IMG/VR virus record: IMGVR_UViG_3300031813_000003
Coordinates: 1-64,000 of that record
Direction: 5' to 3' (one strand)
From: a virus
Lineage: Duplodnaviria; Caudoviricetes
DNA: 64,000 nucleotides
This document shows positions 2,469 to 64,000 of this stretch, piece by piece. The notes beneath the pieces were generated by a model. It was not told the origin of the DNA, searched no databases, and saw only the letters and a program-made list of their open reading frames with translations. Numbering within the stretch: position 1 is the stretch's first letter; the number at the start of each line of letters is the position of its first letter. A program made the position numbers and the translations under genes.

Positions 2469-2875
2469 TGAAAGAACTTAGAATTGGTATCGTGGGTTCA
2501 CGTAGAAGGAACTCTGAAGACGATTTGAAAATACTTGCGGATTTCTTATCAAAAATATTGACATTTTATTCAGATGAGTATAAGGTAGTTCTTGTATCAG
2601 GGGGATGTAAGAAAGGTGGAGATTACTTTGCTGAAATTTTGAATAGGGCATGGCAACTTCCTCCAATGATCATTCACTATCCTGATAAAAGTAAATTACC
2701 GAATAATCCTCAGAGATATGATTTTGCCAAGATAAACTTTGCAAGGAACACTCTGATTGCTAGAGATTCAGATATATTGATTGCCCTTGTTGCGGAAGAT
2801 AGAACAGGAGGAAGTGAAGATACCGTTAAAAAGTTTAAAAAACTTCACCCTAAAGGAAAACTATATCTCATATGA
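2468..2875 (+). CDS. SLOG/DprA-like nucleotide-binding protein
   Basis: IGIVGSR, VSGGC..GGD, ARNTLIARDSD.LIA, GGSEDT motifs. Confidence 0.75.
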   Translation: MKELRIGIVGSRRRNSEDDLKILADFLSKILTFYSDEYKVVLVSGGCKKGGDYFAEILNRAWQLPPMIIHYPDKSKLPNNPQRYDFAKINFARNTLIARDSDILIALVAEDRTGGSEDTVKKFKKLHPKGKLYLI

Positions 2876-3063
2876 TAGATTTAAATGAATATATTTTTAT
2901 CCAATGCCCTAAATGCACAAAGTTGGATATCATCGATAGGATAAAAGATGACCCCTATGATGCAGTTACAGTTGGAATTATTTGCCCTAACTGTGATGAT
3001 GGGGATTTTCATGAACCAGTTTATTACAACAATGATGGGGAGGTAATCAATGCGGAAGGTTGA
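2872..3063 (+). CDS. Small zinc-ribbon protein
   Basis: CPKC...CPNC. Confidence 0.6.
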   Translation: MIDLNEYIFIQCPKCTKLDIIDRIKDDPYDAVTVGIICPNCDDGDFHEPVYYNNDGEVINAEG

Positions 3064-3231
3064 AGAAGTTCTACAAAATCTCTGGAAGAAACTTGAAATT
3101 CGTCCTACCAATAAAGATGGTAAAAAGGATAGTAACTTCAACTATGTTCATCAACTTTATGTTTCTGAAGCAGTGGTTGTCCTTGATAATCATTACCAGG
3201 AGATACTTGTTGGTGAGGAGGAACATTTCTA

Positions 3232-3582
3232 ATGAGTAGCTATAAAATAATTAAATCTGGAGTCACCCAAGAGGGTGATGAGGTATATCGTATATACCAG
3301 AATAAAATGGAATGGGTTAAATTATTATCATCTGATCATAACAAACAGATTATTGCGGATTGCTTTGAATTTCGCAGACCATCTAAACTCACTTCAGATT
3401 TTATTCTAGATATCATCAATACCCTTCGTAGGGAGTATAAACTTTATGAAGTATTGGAATTTTTTGAAACTGCTACCTTTAATGATTATGATGACAGGAT
3501 AGAAGTTGTTTATGATAATGGAGTGATAGACTTGTTTTACAAGATGCCCTCCATTACTCTTGTTCATGAATCAGACTGCTAA
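3232..3582 (+). CDS. Hypothetical protein
   Basis: ORF coupled within the early operon. Confidence 0.65.
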   Translation: MSSYKIIKSGVTQEGDEVYRIYQNKMEWVKLLSSDHNKQIIADCFEFRRPSKLTSDFILDIINTLRREYKLYEVLEFFETATFNDYDDRIEVVYDNGVIDLFYKMPSITLVHESDC

Positions 3583-5932: not shown

Positions 5933-6637
5933 ATGAATTATATTAACCTACATGCACATTCCACACACTCTGATGGGAGAAACACTCTAGAGGAACATGT
6001 GTTTGCCCAAAAAAAACTAGGGATGACTGTATGTGTACTAACAGATCATGTCTACCCTGAAGGATATCAATTCTCCCTCAACACTTCAAAATTTTTGAAA
6101 CAAGTGGAAGAAGCTGAACGGTTGATGGATTCTCTAGGGGTTCCTATCATCCTTGGTATTGAATGCTCTGTCATGAGAATGGAAGAAGTCAATATATTTG
6201 GCAGGGATGCTATTTTAGAAATTCTTAAAATTAAATCAAAAGGCATGATTACCTATGATGATCTAGTTGCCCTCAAGAACAACTACAACTGTATCATCAA
6301 TTATAATCATCCTATGAACCCTCCTAGATTCGTTAAAGCAGGGTGTATGGATTTTATTGATGGGTATGAACATATCCATCAATGCTCATATACATTCGAT
6401 GAGGATTCACCAAATGTTAAACAGTTCACTTGTCCTCCTGAGTTTGCTTCCCTAGTGAAGCTGTGTAATTCTGATGCACATCATGTCGATGCCCTTGAAT
6501 GGTGTTTCAATGAGACTGAGACTCCAATCACAACTGAAGATGAATTAATCTCTTACATTAAAGAACGTAAACCAATGAAGCATATTGTTTGGGGAAAGAA
6601 GGAAACACTTAGTGCTGGTGGAATTATTTTACCATAA
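5933..6637 (+). CDS. PHP-domain phosphoesterase
   Basis: NLHAHSTHSDG, TDH, GIE, NHP, NSDAH. Confidence 0.85.
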   Translation: MNYINLHAHSTHSDGRNTLEEHVFAQKKLGMTVCVLTDHVYPEGYQFSLNTSKFLKQVEEAERLMDSLGVPIILGIECSVMRMEEVNIFGRDAILEILKIKSKGMITYDDLVALKNNYNCIINYNHPMNPPRFVKAGCMDFIDGYEHIHQCSYTFDEDSPNVKQFTCPPEFASLVKLCNSDAHHVDALEWCFNETETPITTEDELISYIKERKPMKHIVWGKKETLSAGGIILP

Positions 6638-6646
6638 TTTTTTAAT

Positions 6647-6675
6647 TTGACTTTAAATCTTTTCTCCTGTATAGT
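6647..6675 (+). promoter_or_regulatory. sigma70 promoter of the ligase N-terminal half
   Basis: TTGACT, 17 bp, TATAGT. Confidence 0.75.
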
Positions 6676-6706
6676 TATTTTACACCACATAACAAAGGAA
6701 TCATAA

Positions 6707-7759
6707 ATGAACGTATTGAAAGATCAAATCAAAAAAGCCAATGATGCCTACCGTGTAGGTAGCCCTATCATGTCTGATGCAGAATATGATATTTTGCTTT
6801 CTAAACTGGAAGACAAAATGGGCTTTATTGAATTTGAAGATTTCAAACAGACCCTTACTGAATCCAACGGAACAATCAAACTGGATTACGTCCTTGGTTC
6901 CCTCACCAAATTCAAATACGAAGAAGCTGACCTTCTCTACAAATGGATTGCTAAAATGAAGATCAAATCCATTTTTGCTTCCTTGAAGATCGATGGTTGC
7001 TCCTTTAATGCCTCTTGGAGGAAAGGAATTCTTACTATGTGTTCCTCCAGAGGGGATGGCGATTCTGGTACTGATTGGACTGCTAAAGCAATGTACATTC
7101 TCCCTACCACAATTCCATATCTGGATGATCTGGATATCAGGGGAGAGTTCACCCTCTGTGACGATTCACATATTGAACTTGGATATAAGAACCGGAGAAA
7201 CGGTACTGTTGGTATCATGAACAAAGATATCATCGAACCTGATAAGCTTAAACATGTGAAAGCAATCTGCTATGAGGTTCTCTCTGGTGAAATGAACATC
7301 TATGAACAGTTCAGGTTTCTTCACAAAGAAGGGTTTATCACTCCCCCTAGGGCAATCTATGATAATCCTGTTGACCTGTATGTTATCCATGAAATCCTGA
7401 AAGAATTCTATTTGGATAGAAAGAAAAAAGCACCTTACGATATCGATGGTATCGTGATCTCTTCTCCGCACTATAAGAGGGAGAATGTATTCTTCCCTGA
7501 AGGAAAAGTAGCATTCAAGATCAATTCTGAAGGTATATGGACTACTGTTATTGGTATTGAGTGGAATATTTCAAAAGGGGGTCTACTTAAACCCACGATT
7601 CTTCTTAAACCGATTGAATTTGGTGGATCAACTGTTCAAAGAGTTACTGGTAACAATGCAAAGTATATTCTTGATAACGGAATTAAGAATGGAACTAAAG
7701 TGTCAGTTATTTTGAGTGGAGAAGTAATTCCAAAAATAGTAAATATAATCAACACTTAG
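6707..7759 (+). CDS. ligA: NAD-dependent DNA ligase, N-terminal half (Ia, adenylation and OB domains)
   Basis: MSDAEYD, KIDG active-site Lys, SRGDG, RGE, YDIDGIV, AFK, SGEVIP motif VI then stop. Confidence 0.92.
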   Translation: MNVLKDQIKKANDAYRVGSPIMSDAEYDILLSKLEDKMGFIEFEDFKQTLTESNGTIKLDYVLGSLTKFKYEEADLLYKWIAKMKIKSIFASLKIDGCSFNASWRKGILTMCSSRGDGDSGTDWTAKAMYILPTTIPYLDDLDIRGEFTLCDDSHIELGYKNRRNGTVGIMNKDIIEPDKLKHVKAICYEVLSGEMNIYEQFRFLHKEGFITPPRAIYDNPVDLYVIHEILKEFYLDRKKKAPYDIDGIVISSPHYKRENVFFPEGKVAFKINSEGIWTTVIGIEWNISKGGLLKPTILLKPIEFGGSTVQRVTGNNAKYILDNGIKNGTKVSVILSGEVIPKIVNIINT

Positions 7760-8412
7760 CAATTCCTCTAGCTATAAACTTACATTTAAATCTTTTATGA
7801 TGGTTTCTATCACCAGATGCAACACTACTCATTTTTGATTGTTGTAACTTATGGTCTTTACAAAATTTATTTAATCCTATTATGATTTCAATATGTCCGT
7901 CAGGAAATGTTATTTCGTATGTTGATTTTTGCTTTTGGTCACCTATGCTCTTAGCTTTGATCCACTCTGGATTTTTAGCTAATAGTTCAATTGCATCTTG
8001 GTGTTTCTGTTTCACTTCTGGTCTTTTCATGACATTGTTGTCACCACAGAAAGATTTCATTGCTGTTTTTAAACTTTCGTCATGTCTTCTTTTTATATTG
8101 GGGTCAGACATTGGATGAAAATCACCACCTTTAGTTAAATTATATCCTTTACCAGAACTAACGTGGCAATCATATTCAACTATAAATTCAATTTCTTTTT
8201 CATCAAGTTCTTCTTTAGAAGAACAATAGCATTCAACTTCCCATATAAAGGAATCCCAACCATATTTTCGTATTGCTTTATGAAAATATGATTTTGATTG
8301 AGTTGTCAAGGCAGCATATTTGTGTGCTGTTTTTTCTCATATGTAATGTATTTTTACTTTGTCCAATATAAATTTTATTGTTAATTATATTAGTAGCTTT
8401 ATATATTATCAT
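7749..8412 (-). mobile_element. Free-standing GIY-YIG homing endonuclease gene, antisense within the ligase locus; frameshift at 8330-8335
   Basis: MIIYKATN..NKIYIGQS, then in another frame FHKAIRKYG..F..E..LDEKE..GYNLTKGG; frames join by removing one base from the A6 run; AAGGA RBS. Confidence 0.85.
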
Positions 8413-8465
8413 AAATATTCCTTTCATCTGGTGATGTGATTCCAATAGTATTTGTGTAAAACAAA

Positions 8466-8525
8466 TTGACATTGAAATCATCGTATGGTAAGATAATTTA
8501 TAAATCAATCATCGGAGGATATACG
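8466..8525 (+). promoter_or_regulatory. sigma70 promoter and RBS for the ligase C-terminal half
   Basis: TTGACA 8466, 17 bp, TAAGAT 8489; GGAGG before GTG 8526. Confidence 0.8.
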
Positions 8526-9341
8526 GTGCATATCGAATTAAAAATGAAAGAATTGGGAATGCCAGTTGAATGCCCATCCTGTGGTTCTAAGCTTATATGG
8601 AAGTCTGTTGACCTTGCTTGCGTCAACCCTGATTGTGAAACCAAACAGGTTAAAGAAGTTGCATCATTCATCGTTAAATGTGGGGTGGAGAATGCAACTG
8701 AGAAATCTTTAACCAATTGGGGAATCACTAACTTTACTAATCTTTTTACTTTCAGACCTGATCCTACTTCCAAGTCTGCTACCAATTTTGAAGACGAACT
8801 GAAAAAGAATGTTTTCAGCAAGTCGATGGAAGAATTGTTTGCTTGCCTCTCTTTCGATGGTGCTGGTTCTACCAACATTAATAAGATCATCGACTTCTAC
8901 GGTGAAGGTAGTCTCATTATTGCTACCAAAGTGTTGAGAGCAGCAAATGAACTCTTTTTCGAAATGAATGGTTACCCTGAAGGTATTGGGCAGAAGGTGA
9001 TCGATAAAATCAAGGATGATTGGAACAAGAACCTTTACGTTGTCAAGATGGTTCTGAATGATAGTAGATACAATCCGAAACCTAAAGCAGCTGTTGCAAC
9101 AGGGAAACTCACTGGTGCATCTTTTGTCCTTACAGGATCGTTCCCTGATGGGAAAAAAGAACTGGAGAAGATGATCGTTGCAGCTGGTGGAACTATCGCT
9201 TCAAGTGTCTCTAAAACGCTCAAATTCCTCGTTTGCGCCCCTGACAGTTGGGGAAGCAGTAGCAAGTACACCAAAGCAGAAAAACTGGCTAAAGACGGCG
9301 TTAAGATCGTTACAGAGGCACAATTGAGAGAAATGCTGTGA
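8526..9341 (+). CDS. ligA: NAD-dependent DNA ligase, C-terminal half (Zn finger, HhH, BRCT)
   Basis: PVECPSCGS...CVNPDC, GIG HhH motif, FVLTGS...GG..SSVSK..FLV...SSKY.KA BRCT. Confidence 0.9.
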   Translation: MHIELKMKELGMPVECPSCGSKLIWKSVDLACVNPDCETKQVKEVASFIVKCGVENATEKSLTNWGITNFTNLFTFRPDPTSKSATNFEDELKKNVFSKSMEELFACLSFDGAGSTNINKIIDFYGEGSLIIATKVLRAANELFFEMNGYPEGIGQKVIDKIKDDWNKNLYVVKMVLNDSRYNPKPKAAVATGKLTGASFVLTGSFPDGKKELEKMIVAAGGTIASSVSKTLKFLVCAPDSWGSSSKYTKAEKLAKDGVKIVTEAQLREML

Positions 9342-9512
9342 GTGATGTTAAAGTTTACCGTGACCTAATTGATGGTGATAAGATTCAAGTAGGTGATGAA
9401 GCATACACTTGGGTAGATGATTGTACTAGACTTGGATGGTATACAATATTGGAAGGGGATCATTGCAATACAGTATTCTGGATGGAGTTAATAACATGTC
9501 AAGACTAACTAC

Positions 9513-9810
9513 AATGGAAGATATTACTGCTGTGGTTTCTCACACAGTTAAACGTGCAGTTATAATTGAGGAAGTTGGAAAGCTAACCATAAAAGTAGCT
9601 AGAAAATATGTCCCACTGTTTGATGAACTGAAACATTTTCTTCCTGCTGGTATCTCATATCAGGTTGAGTATCTTCCATTTTGGGAGTGTAGATTAAAAA
9701 GAATCAAAATCATAAGTAACAATTTTGTGTATGAAGGTAAACCTGTATCTGATGGTTATTGGTGGGGCGACTGTTATTACGCTTCAAGGAAAGGTGAGTT
9801 GTGCAAATAA
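9513..9810 (+). CDS. Hypothetical protein (start uncertain)
   Basis: Part of ORF 9436..9810. Confidence 0.5.
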
Positions 9811-10052
9811 ATCAATACCCAATGAGAAAGGGATTCAGGAGAATCCATTTAGACAATATGATATGGCAGTACAAGATACTAAGATCAACCGTTATTATAT
9901 ATTCTCCTGTTGGTGTAAAGCATGTCACTGATGAATCGGTTGTCACTGGTATGTCTTGAAATGATATTGAACGTGGGTATTGGAAAGGTTGGGGGTACAT
10001 GTATGGGAATTAAACCAAGTCAAATAAAAGAATTCATTCAAGGAATTAAAAA

Positions 10053-59053: not shown

Positions 59054-61615
59054 ATGGAAAGACCTAAAGACATAATAATACACAGAAAAGACCATGCAAC
59101 AGTTACAATAGAATGTAATCATATCATTACAGGGGAGCTAAGTCAATTTTTCTCATCTTTTGCCCTCAACTATAAATTCTCCCCTATGTATAAAAATAAA
59201 TTGTGGGATGGCAAGATTCGATTCTTTTCAGCTGCTACCAATGAGTTACCTATTGGCCTAGTGGAAAAACTTTACGAATTCTCTAGGCTAGGGAATTATA
59301 CAATCCAGTGTAACTACAAACGATTCAATGAAGTAACCAGAGAAGATTTTAAAAAGTTTGTGGATTCCCTTGGGATTCCATTCCCCCTCAGGGATTACCA
59401 ACTGGAAGCAGCATATCAATGTGTCTGTAAAAAGAACCTGAACGTCCATGCTGCTACCTCCTGTCATAAAGCAGGAGATACTGTTATGATGTCTACTGGT
59501 ATTTGGAAAAATATTGAAGATATTAAAATTGGAGAGTATGTCATAGGTATGGATGGTACTCCTAAAATGGTTTTAAAAATATTTTCAGGTAAAGACGATC
59601 TTTATTCAATAAAACCAAAAAACAATAGACCTGAAATAACAGTAACAAAAGAGCATATACTTCCAATAAAAAGATCAGATTATAATAAAAAATATAGTAA
59701 AACAAAAGGAAATAAAGACTACATAGAATATATTTCAGTTGATGATTATATTAAAAAAGATAACTATTATAAACATATATCTAATATTTTTTATAATAAA
59801 AATGTTATTGAGTTTGGTGATGATCCAAATACAAAGTTAACACCATATTTTATTGGTTTATATCTAGGAGATGGTAGCACTCATTCTTGTCAGATAACAA
59901 ACAAGGATAAAGAATGTGTACAGGAAATATACTATCAAGCTTCATTGGTGAATTGTGAAGTAAAAACTGATGATAATCTTCATTATGATATTTTAGGATG
60001 TTCTGGTGTTAAAGGAGTTGTAAGTAGCAATAGAAATATAATTTTTAGAGAATTTGATATACTAGGTATATGTTTTTCTAGTAATAAAGATAAACATATA
60101 AAATACGTAGATAGGTTCATACCAGAGTGTATTTTTAATTCATCTATTGACTTTAGACTAGAAGTTTTATCAGGATTGATAGATAGTGATGGTCATTTGG
60201 CTAATGGTTCTGGTTATGAATTAACATTTAAATCCAAACAGTTAAGAGATGACATTCAAAGATTAGCAATATCATTAGGATTTGTATGTTCTACTAATAC
60301 AAAACATAATAAAAAATATAATAGAGATTACTATAAAGTTTTAATAATGGGAGATGTATATAAAATACCAGTCAGGATAGAAAGAAAAAAAGCAAAAAAT
60401 ATAGTAAGAGTAAGAGATCAGTATAGAAGTAATTTTGATGTGGAATATAAAGGGTATGATAATTTTTATGGTATGGAAGTAGAAGATCATCATTATATTA
60501 CTAATGGTGGAATGATAACACATAATAGCGGTAAATCTTTGATTATATATGTAGTGGTACGCTTCATGGTTTATATGAAGCTTAAAACCGTTATTATATG
60601 CCCTGCGACACAATTAGTGGAACAGATGTTTGGTGACTTCATTTCATATGGTTGGCAAGCTGAAAGATTCTGTCATAGGGTATACGGCGATCAGGAAAAA
60701 TTCTTTGATGCCCCTGTCACCATAGCATGTTGGCAATCTCTGATCTCAACCAAGGTACGAAAGAAGAACCCATACGAGAGTTTCGACTGCATCCTAGTAG
60801 ATGAGGCACACAATGCTAAAGCTAAATCCATATCTGATCTTAGTAAGGTATGTATCAATGCTCAATATCGTTTCGGATTCTCAGGAACATACCCTGAAGC
60901 ATCTGTTGCCGATTGGTATTCAATAGTGGGAAGCTTTGGCCCAATCCAAACTTTCACTACTTATAAAAAACTTGAAGAAGAAGGACACATCACACCACTA
61001 AAAATATACAATGTAATTTTAAAATATGATAGAGAATTCAAATTAGCTTTATATAACGAATGTTCTAAAGACTATAATGCGCAAAATGATAAGATTCATA
61101 ATCATGAAAGTAGGAATAGATTCATTCTTAAAATGGTTCAAAATCTAAAAGAAAATTGTCTAATATTATTTACAAAGAAAGAAGCCCACGGTTATGGTAT
61201 ATTTGAACTATTCGATAATGAATTAAAAGACAAAACTATCATATATATTGATGGTGATGTTAGTGTTGAGGATCGTGAGAAAGCTAGAAAACTTATGGGA
61301 GAAAAAAATAATGTAGTAATGTTGGCAACCTATGCCCTCATGTCAACAGGGATCAATATCCCAAATCTTCATTCTATCATTTTTGCATCATCTTATAAGA
61401 GTAAAACAAAAGTTCTTCAATCAATTGGGAGGTCTTTGAGACTACATTCCAGCAAGAAATATGCAAAACTATTTGATATTGTTGATGATTGTTCATTTCA
61501 AGACAGGGTAAACAAAATAAAGTTCATAAATTACTCTATGGAACATTATAAGGAGCGTAGTCAATTTTACTCAGATGAAGGTTGGGATGTTAAAACCATC
61601 AAGTATGATATCTAA
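59054..61615 (+). CDS. uvsW: UvsW SF2 helicase (intein-containing)
   Basis: WDGKIR, RDYQ, ATS-SGKS, DEAH, TGINIP.L, QSIGR.LR. Confidence 0.93.
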   Translation: MERPKDIIIHRKDHATVTIECNHIITGELSQFFSSFALNYKFSPMYKNKLWDGKIRFFSAATNELPIGLVEKLYEFSRLGNYTIQCNYKRFNEVTREDFKKFVDSLGIPFPLRDYQLEAAYQCVCKKNLNVHAATSCHKAGDTVMMSTGIWKNIEDIKIGEYVIGMDGTPKMVLKIFSGKDDLYSIKPKNNRPEITVTKEHILPIKRSDYNKKYSKTKGNKDYIEYISVDDYIKKDNYYKHISNIFYNKNVIEFGDDPNTKLTPYFIGLYLGDGSTHSCQITNKDKECVQEIYYQASLVNCEVKTDDNLHYDILGCSGVKGVVSSNRNIIFREFDILGICFSSNKDKHIKYVDRFIPECIFNSSIDFRLEVLSGLIDSDGHLANGSGYELTFKSKQLRDDIQRLAISLGFVCSTNTKHNKKYNRDYYKVLIMGDVYKIPVRIERKKAKNIVRVRDQYRSNFDVEYKGYDNFYGMEVEDHHYITNGGMITHNSGKSLIIYVVVRFMVYMKLKTVIICPATQLVEQMFGDFISYGWQAERFCHRVYGDQEKFFDAPVTIACWQSLISTKVRKKNPYESFDCILVDEAHNAKAKSISDLSKVCINAQYRFGFSGTYPEASVADWYSIVGSFGPIQTFTTYKKLEEEGHITPLKIYNVILKYDREFKLALYNECSKDYNAQNDKIHNHESRNRFILKMVQNLKENCLILFTKKEAHGYGIFELFDNELKDKTIIYIDGDVSVEDREKARKLMGEKNNVVMLATYALMSTGINIPNLHSIIFASSYKSKTKVLQSIGRSLRLHSSKKYAKLFDIVDDCSFQDRVNKIKFINYSMEHYKERSQFYSDEGWDVKTIKYDI
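59462..60526 (+). mobile_element. Intein (355 aa) with LAGLIDADG endonuclease, inserted in Walker A
   Basis: Starts CHKAGD, block B VTKEH, GLYLGDG and GLIDSDG, ends THN before Ser. Confidence 0.93.
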
Positions 61616-62788: not shown

Positions 62789-64000
62789 ATGTCGAAATCA
62801 ACCTTCAAACCTTCTCCCCAACAGCAAGCCCTCTTCAACTGGATTCTTACTGGCAAGGGTTCCTGTGTTCTGGAAGCGGTTGCAGGTTCTGGCAAAACTA
62901 CCACTCTGGTAGAAGCTCTGAAGCTGATGGAAGGTACGATCTTTTTCGGTGCATACAACAAGAAGATTGCTGAAGAGATTAAAGAGAGAGCAGGGGAGAA
63001 AGCGGGTCTGAATGCCTCTACCTTTCATGCAGCTGGGTTGAATGCTTGGAAAAAGATTGCACGTAGCTGCCAGATTGATGCTAATAAATGCCGCAACATC
63101 TATCGTGAAAACTACGCCGATCCTAACTTCTTCAAACTTGAGACTCCGGTACTCAACCTCGTTTCCTACGCTAAACAGGCAGCTATTGGTGCAGTATGCT
63201 CTGCTGCTGATGATTCTGTCTGGTATGATCTGGTTGAACATTTTAACATCGATTGCCTTGGAAGGGATGAAGAAGTTGTCGATATCGCCAAAAAGATTCT
63301 TGGGCTTTCTGTAGCTTTGGATACCAAGATCATCGATTTCGATGACATGATCTATTGCCCCTTGGTTCACAAGGTGAAAGTAACTGAGTACGATTGGGTC
63401 TTGATTGACGAGGCTCAGGATACCAACGCAAGCCGCAGGGCATTAGCACTGCTGATGCTGAAGAGGGGTGGACGCTTAATCGCAGTAGGTGATAGAAAAC
63501 AGATGATCTATGGTTTCACTGGTTGCGACTCAGATTCTATGGATCAGATCAAAAACGCAGTCAATGCAATTGAACTACCTTTAACTGTTACCTACCGTTG
63601 CCCGAAAGCAGTAGTAAAGGAAGCACAGAAGTATGTATCCCATATCACTGCACACGAATCTGCCCCTGAAGGAACAGTAACTACCTTGGTTGGTGAAATC
63701 ACCAAGAGTGCAAAGCCTGGGGATGCTATTCTTTGCCGCTTCAATGCTCCTTTGATCGAAATGGTATATTCCTTTATCGCTGATGGTATCCCTGCAAAGG
63801 TTGAAGGAAGGGAAATTGGTTCTTCCATGAAAACCCTTCTTCGTAGGTATAAATCCAAAACCTTTTCGGTTCTCATTGATCGTCTGAATGAGTACCGTGA
63901 TCGTGAGTCTGCAAAACTTCGCATCAAAGAAAAAGAGTCTCAGGCAGTTGCAATTGAAGACAAGGTTAACTGCCTTAAAGTTATCATTACAAGGGTAGAG
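62789..64000 (+). CDS. UvrD/Rep-family SF1 helicase, runs off the window (not in track)
   Basis: EAVAGSGKTTT, AYNKKIA, STFH, IDFDDMI, LIDEAQD, VGD..Q.IYGF.G, TYRCP. Confidence 0.92.
   Translation, partial: MSKSTFKPSPQQQALFNWILTGKGSCVLEAVAGSGKTTTLVEALKLMEGTIFFGAYNKKIAEEIKERAGEKAGLNASTFHAAGLNAWKKIARSCQIDANKCRNIYRENYADPNFFKLETPVLNLVSYAKQAAIGAVCSAADDSVWYDLVEHFNIDCLGRDEEVVDIAKKILGLSVALDTKIIDFDDMIYCPLVHKVKVTEYDWVLIDEAQDTNASRRALALLMLKRGGRLIAVGDRKQMIYGFTGCDSDSMDQIKNAVNAIELPLTVTYRCPKAVVKEAQKYVSHITAHESAPEGTVTTLVGEITKSAKPGDAILCRFNAPLIEMVYSFIADGIPAKVEGREIGSSMKTLLRRYKSKTFSVLIDRLNEYRDRESAKLRIKEKESQAVAIEDKVNCLKVIITRVE

Follow-up and report, generated by a model that had tools for sequence, protein, structure and literature searches.

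The window analysed here is the first 64 kb (64,000 nucleotides, nt) of IMG/VR virus record IMGVR_UViG_3300031813_000003, a single contig of 215,974 bp rated 100% complete by CheckV, with a GC content of 34% and nearly every gene on the plus strand. Its source is, judging from the presence of a UvsW helicase gene and from a tail sheath gene near the ligase in relatives, a distant T4-like phage, and megablast found nothing similar to positions 6400-9600 among 50,697 phage records. The subject is a nicotinamide adenine dinucleotide (NAD+)-dependent DNA ligase whose domains are distributed over two plus-strand genes, ligN (6707-7759) and ligC (8526-9341), with a free-standing GIY-YIG homing endonuclease gene lying between them on the minus strand (7749-8412). 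This arrangement very probably represents a splicing-free two-subunit enzyme, split at the linker between OB fold and zinc finger by the GIY-YIG cassette; from the sequence we infer that the halves assemble, that the assembled ligase is active and that the cassette was inserted by homing. It is the sole ligase of the complete 215,974-bp genome, in which profile searches returned a single PF01653 match, a single BRCT match and no ATP-dependent ligase domain.

Two ligase genes and an antisense endonuclease gene

The upstream gene encodes LigN, a protein of 350 amino acids (aa) that comprises a probable domain Ia, an adenylation domain with the KIDG lysine K94, and an OB fold with motif VI. Its start codon is preceded by AAGGA (6695-6699, plus strand), and both catalytic-half families are recognised by Pfam above their cut-offs (PF01653, 48.1 bits; PF03120, 59.3 bits). 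Motif I (KxDG, here K94-I-D96-G97) shows no variation at K94, D96 or G97 across 33 relatives. In LigA, domain Ia is the determinant of NAD+ specificity. Residues 2-88 of LigN align with residues 11-112 of the T. filiformis ligase (1dgs), and Y15, Y27 and D28, which lie in the stretch ...YRVGSPIMSDAEYD..., are invariant in relatives. An earlier note on this DNA had placed the end of the ligase just past motif VI, at the linker between OB fold and zinc finger, and this is borne out: the C-terminus reads ...SGEVIPKIVNIINT, with GEVIPK near its end, and the stop codon (7757-7759) follows 8 codons after motif VI. LigN aligns with 1dgs (residues 2-348 with 11-389). When compared with chain A of the two-chain ligase 9hu3, to which only the OB part aligned (residues 262-347), LigN reaches residue 336 of 339, three residues short of the end of that chain.

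The downstream half is contained in an open reading frame (ORF) at 8466-9341 on the plus strand, in which the likely start codon is the GTG at 8526, 7 nt past the Shine-Dalgarno (SD) sequence GGAGG (8514-8518); the collection's own gene call gives the identical protein. LigC (271 aa) consists of a 12-aa leader, a Cys4 zinc finger, a middle region of ~150 aa in the place of the HhH domain, and a BRCT domain (PF00533, 35 bits, cut-off 21.3 bits). The Pfam match of the zinc finger is weak (PF03119, 20.5 bits, below the 25.8-bit cut-off). The Cys4 region aligns to the zinc fingers of 1dgs and of chain B of 9hu3, and none of its cysteines C16, C19, C32 and C37 varies among 19 stand-alone C halves, which reach down to ~30% identity. 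LigC residues 9-266 align with residues 399-653 of 1dgs, and the protein also aligns to residues 3-234 of 9hu3 chain B. The SD sequence is kept in L004, the closest relative (an ERZ1426827 contig), while the start codon is displaced by one codon: GGAGG...ATG ACG in L004 (4217-4222) corresponds to GGAGG...ACG GTG in the window (8523-8528). Such turnover of the start behind a retained SD sequence is the pattern expected where selection acts on translation of the C half.

The gene between the halves begins at ATG 8412, with AAAGGA upstream, and its stop codon (7749-7751) places its 3' end within the end of ligN, with an overlap of 11 nt. The position reported in the earlier note, a minus-strand GIY-YIG gene whose stop overlaps that of the ligase, is therefore correct, but the gene is not a single reading frame. 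It is divided into two ORFs, one of 44 aa with the GIY...YIG motif (8412-8278) and one of 186 aa (8309-7749): the product of ATG 8412 begins MIIYKATNIINNKIYIGQS... and hits a stop after 44 codons, and the other 186 codons are in a different frame. When the gene is aligned with its orthologue from L004, an 82%-identical relative in which it is unbroken, the +1 frameshift falls in the plus-strand T run 8330-8335 (A6 on the coding strand), which holds one extra base. The two frames match different parts of this orthologue, which measures 221 aa from the same methionine and is called as 232 aa. It matches PF01541 with 26.7 bits (cut-off 22.6) and has an I-HmuI NUMOD-like DNA-binding tail. The window gene itself is matched by PHROG homing-endonuclease families (phrog_314 at 1e-27) and retains the motifs IYKATN...KIYIGQS and GYNLTKGG.

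The history of this element can be read from its divergence. Past the frameshift, the ratio of nonsynonymous to synonymous substitution rates (dN/dS) against L004 is 0.22, at a dS of 0.92 over 190 codons, and nucleotide identity to L004 is ~75% in the endonuclease gene and 79-84% in the flanks. A divergence similar to that of the flanks, together with this dN/dS, indicates that the element was present and under selection in the common ancestor with L004 and was broken recently in the window lineage. That the endonuclease is still made, whether because the additional base arose in assembly or because slippage on the A6 run restores the frame, is unlikely. The shift does sit in a homopolymer, and the 186-codon downstream frame is open with the low dN/dS just given. 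However, a 57-kb Logan contig (SRR11607848), which may not be independent of the window's record, shows no difference over 7,053 bases, the T run among them, which makes an assembly error there improbable. Restoration of the frame would require a +1 (or -2) shift, whereas the -1 slip favoured by A_AAA_AAC meets a stop after 7 codons, and a run of six A's falls short of what efficient transcriptional slippage generally needs.

Split and intact ligases in related phages

Both halves of the ligase are maintained by selection. In comparison with L004, at a dS of ~0.8-1.0, the N half has a dN/dS of 0.115 and the C half one of 0.096, and more distant pairs give similar values. On this evidence the C half is not decaying, as the earlier proposal of a working split requires, and the two halves are under equal purifying selection. 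Relatives of LigN are phage ligases at 45-82% identity, among which forms of 343-373 aa are mixed with intact forms of 596-613 aa, and all of the shorter forms stop within ten residues past the IPK motif. On a tree of 56 N-terminal regions (quick IQ-TREE), 11 changes between the split and the intact state are needed, at least 9 of them forced by well-supported branches, and all occur at one linker. Alignment with intact relatives, a step proposed in the earlier note, shows the ends of the two halves to be flush. In each of the 7 split loci examined in this family, the halves are adjacent and in the same order.

The content of the gap between the halves varies. The window and L004 carry the antisense GIY-YIG gene, L007 has an unrelated antisense ORF, and L005 and L006 each hold three small plus-strand ORFs. 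The gap measures just 64 nt in L009 and 59 nt in L010; both have an SD sequence there, and the split evidently persists in these two phages without any endonuclease gene. A particularly close comparison is provided by L007 (split) and L008 (intact), whose flanks are 95-97% identical and in which 1,063 nt stand in place of 20 nt of linker; this pair shows directly how a cassette is either gained or lost at the linker site. The antisense ORF of L007 (5449-6513, minus strand, 354 aa), which is absent from L008, belongs to no Pfam or PHROG family and is a candidate new homing nuclease. In frame just upstream of the L007 C half, the sequence ...REVIPK resembles a remnant of motif VI. The window shows a weaker EVIPK likeness, SYGKIIYK, upstream of its C half, which is not beyond chance in an AT-rich genome; a stretch of this kind could be a remodelled target duplication.

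The two precedents invoked in the earlier note, the two-subunit ligases of T5-like phages (PMC3632103) and the split nrdA of Aeh1 (PMC3045599), are both real. T5 ligA and ligB are annotated as ligase subunits (PMC3632103), and PDB entries 9hu3 and 9i5i contain a two-chain ligase with a chain A of 339 aa and a chain B of 248 aa, which is labelled 'DNA ligase subunit B' and is close to LigB of the T5-like Proteus phage Stubb (4e-93). A search of the accessible literature found no publication describing the two-chain ligase 9HU3, and the PDB entry alone is cited; PMC6207643 concerns an intact ligase. The window ligase is split at the same OB/zinc-finger linker as 9HU3/9I5I, and the T5-type genes are likewise adjacent and on the same strand, the second with its own SD sequence and often with a promoter in the gap. 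In contrast, sequence identity to the T5-type enzymes is only ~25-30% (~25% for LigC against T5-like LigB proteins), and gap contents differ, with an antisense GIY-YIG gene in the window, a NADAR gene in Stubb and only 189 nt in DU_PP_V. Intact ligases lie between the two groups, close relatives at 50-67% identity are intact, and the two states interchange; the split is therefore not shared with T5 by descent. The window ligase would thus work like the T5 enzyme, but it is not a member by descent of the Demerecviridae ligA/ligB group. In Stubb, the product of the gene between ligA and ligB (2701-3318 of locus L002), annotated as 'hypothetical protein', is a NADAR-domain protein (1.6e-31), so that an NAD/ADP-ribose-related enzyme is encoded there between the halves of an NAD-dependent ligase.

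A parallel in the manner of splitting is nrdA-a/mobE/nrdA-b of phage Aeh1, where an enzyme split by an endonuclease gene works as two polypeptides and the insertion-derived tails are needed for activity (Crona et al. 2011, PMC3045599). In both cases a free-standing homing endonuclease gene interrupts a gene that a T4-like phage needs for its DNA metabolism, splicing of RNA or protein plays no part, and the insertion creates new C- and N-terminal tails. The Aeh1 case differs in affecting a ribonucleotide reductase and in its HNH endonuclease, as opposed to a ligase and a GIY-YIG gene in antisense orientation; and whereas the Aeh1 tails are needed for activity, the 12-aa leader of LigC is only predicted, in a structural model, to touch the OB fold. 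The fractured genes described by Dassa et al. (2009, PMC2677866), which combine split inteins with a free-standing endonuclease, also consist of two ORFs with an endonuclease gene between them, but the ends of the window ligase carry neither intein halves nor a Hint domain and are collinear with uninterrupted ligases. The endonuclease itself resembles the Seg family of free-standing GIY-YIG proteins of T4-like phages in its catalytic domain and NUMOD-like tail, and it differs from them in lying inside a coding region, not between genes, and in being frameshifted in the window copy.

Proposed assembly of the halves and alternative explanations

In the proposed mechanism, a single NAD+ ligase gene would have been cut at the flexible OB/zinc-finger linker by insertion of an opposite-strand cassette carrying the free-standing GIY-YIG gene. 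The cassette would have given the upstream half its last codons and stop codon, and the downstream half its ribosome-binding site, start codon and short leader; it would probably have brought a promoter as well. The two halves would then be translated separately, with LigN responsible for the chemistry (NAD+ binding, adenylation and OB functions) and LigC providing the DNA clamp and BRCT domain. They would reassemble non-covalently, mainly through contacts of the OB fold with the zinc finger and leader, into a nick-sealing enzyme like the T5-type LigA/LigB, and neither RNA nor protein splicing would take part in this assembly. The one-base insertion has recently inactivated the endonuclease gene in this phage, leaving a split that is now fixed and independent of the element that would have made it. 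A ligase gene in pieces that works as two polypeptides, as the earlier note had proposed, fits the lack of any intron or intein, the purifying selection on both halves, the T5-type split site and the splits with gaps of 59-64 nt.

Physical association of the halves was modelled by structure prediction. A complex prediction for LigN and LigC, with alignments built for the purpose, gave a score of 0.61, and the best of 3 controls gave 0.00; 58 of 80 solved complexes and 2 of 110 mismatched pairs attain this mark. At least 98% of contacts are shared between the model runs, with a partner pLDDT (predicted local distance difference test) of at least 82. In the modelled interface, OB residues 286-295 and 317-327 meet LigC residues 3-47, which make up the leader and the zinc finger.

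Separate translation of the two halves is well supported. Every split locus examined has a good SD sequence before the C half. The transcriptional side of the claim in the earlier note, that the halves are independently expressed, fares less well. The sequences it had named upstream of ligC are present: TTGACA (8466-8471) and, after a 17-nt spacer, (TG)TAAGAT (8489-8494), followed by GGAGG. L004 has TTGACT-17-(TG)TAAGAT in the same place, and the L009 spacer contains a TTGACA-17-TATATT site. Upstream of ligN, the promoter-like TTGACT-17-TATAGT (6647-6675, plus strand), a consensus match only, has identical hexamers in the same relative place in L004, so that both candidate promoters are conserved in position there. 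No T4-type late-promoter motif (TATAAATA) was found on either strand of 6000-10000. A search for a promoter of the endonuclease gene found none, and the convergent antisense transcription suggested in the earlier note is conjecture.

Several observations weigh against the two-subunit interpretation. Sigma-70-like sites occur in the region at chance level (16, against 13.2 ± 3.8 in shuffled sequences) and no terminator was found between ligN and ligC, so that transcription of ligN may also continue through ligC and independent transcription of the halves is not well supported. The ~150-residue middle of LigC is collinear with the HhH region of 1dgs, though HhH motifs have no Pfam match there or in the C halves of close relatives, which makes the DNA-clamp domain divergent. 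The complex model may merely reproduce the solved structures of full-length LigA and 9HU3, and it shows likeness and not binding. The endonuclease gene, in turn, has long been inherited vertically at the locus and did not arrive recently, and insertion of this particular element by homing can only be presumed.

An alternative reading, in which the N half alone is a working ligase and the C half a separate DNA-binding/BRCT accessory protein that forms no stable enzyme with it, is improbable. Fragments of bacterial LigA that hold only the adenylation and OB domains are able to self-adenylate, and the variable genes in the gap imply that tight coupling of expression is not conserved. Against this stand the constant adjacency and order of the halves in all split loci examined, the invariant zinc cysteines, and a dN/dS in the C half that is the same as in the N half. 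Moreover, the zinc and HhH domains of E. coli LigA are needed for nick sealing, and in the model the zinc finger and leader lie against the OB fold.

Even less credible is the view that the ligase is a casualty of the insertion, with one or both halves reduced to non-functional remnants and the phage relying on host LigA. Decay does occur at the locus, as the broken endonuclease gene demonstrates, but the ligase halves both have a dN/dS of ~0.1 at a dS of ~0.8-1.0 and keep their catalytic and zinc residues invariant. Split alleles are also retained in relatives of 45-87% identity, and the lost start codon of the C half was replaced by an adjacent GTG.

Removal of the interruption by splicing, through a group I intron with an antisense ORF, an intein or split inteins, to give a single-chain ligase has next to no likelihood, in spite of the intein in the UvsW helicase (59054-61615) by which the same genome does splice a protein: cmscan with all Rfam families (E<=1) gave no match to a group I intron or any other family on either strand of 6000-10000, Pfam found no Hint or intein domain in either ligase half, ligN has its own stop and ligC its own SD sequence and start, conserved across relatives, and the gaps in some relatives are just 59-64 nt. 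This agrees with the absence of intron and intein reported in the earlier note. The non-coding part of the gap between ligN and ligC amounts to only 113 nt. Taken together, the two halves equal one uninterrupted ligase (1dgs) with ~1 residue extra, and their ends are flush also with intact relatives; this collinearity leaves no room for intein halves. Because the UvsW intein was detected in the same genome, the absence of an intein at the ligase is not a blind spot of the method. The genome therefore combines protein splicing in one replication gene, UvsW, with a splice-free split in another, the ligase.

With regard to the two-subunit reading, the principle is already known from T5 ligA/ligB, the 9HU3 structure and Aeh1 nrdA/mobE, and the locus adds no new category. 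It would provide a natural example of a LigA architecture that tolerates a cut at the OB/zinc-finger linker, and of how an enzyme of one chain can become heritably two-subunit through the action of selfish endonuclease genes. The ligase family presents, at one site and across 45-87% identity, a full series of the endonuclease life cycle, from intact alleles through occupied splits and a broken endonuclease to empty 60-nt scars, and would be well suited to studies of the spread of split alleles and of the way in which the halves come together. It is conceivable, although the balance leans against it, that the cassette (stop, antisense nuclease gene, promoter, SD sequence and leader) is a portable 'split allele' that homes between freshwater T4-like phages and makes intact ligases two-subunit, with the leader HIELKMKELGM serving as an assembly tag like the Aeh1 NrdA tails. 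If true, this would explain the state changes, at least 9 in number, at one linker, as well as the presence of several unrelated nuclease genes at the same site.

Other mobile elements and neighbouring genes

The genome contains four further GIY-YIG paralogue matches, at 64242-64943, 89630-90343 and 178675-179292 on the minus strand and at 160348-160953 on the plus strand, none of which was seen to split a recognisable gene. The three on the minus strand are antisense to a mostly plus-strand genome, and at their 3' ends they share 9-32 nt with the upstream gene, its stop included, as at the ligase. Internal stops were reported by the genome search for the match near 90 kb. A second split gene, a UvrD-like helicase at ~62744-64273 beside an antisense GIY-YIG gene, was considered and rejected, as the helicase frame is continuous and the minus-strand ORF at 62798-63370 is a shadow ORF.

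Immediately 5' of ligN lies a gene for a PHP-domain phosphoesterase (5933-6637, plus strand), whose position is kept in L004; other relatives have different genes in its place upstream of the N half of the ligase. The UvsW-type helicase gene, on the plus strand, encodes UvsW_N, ResIII and Helicase_C domains together with an intein that carries Hint and LAGLIDADG homing-endonuclease domains, and the intein is inserted at the P-loop (…AATS|C…HN|SGKS…).

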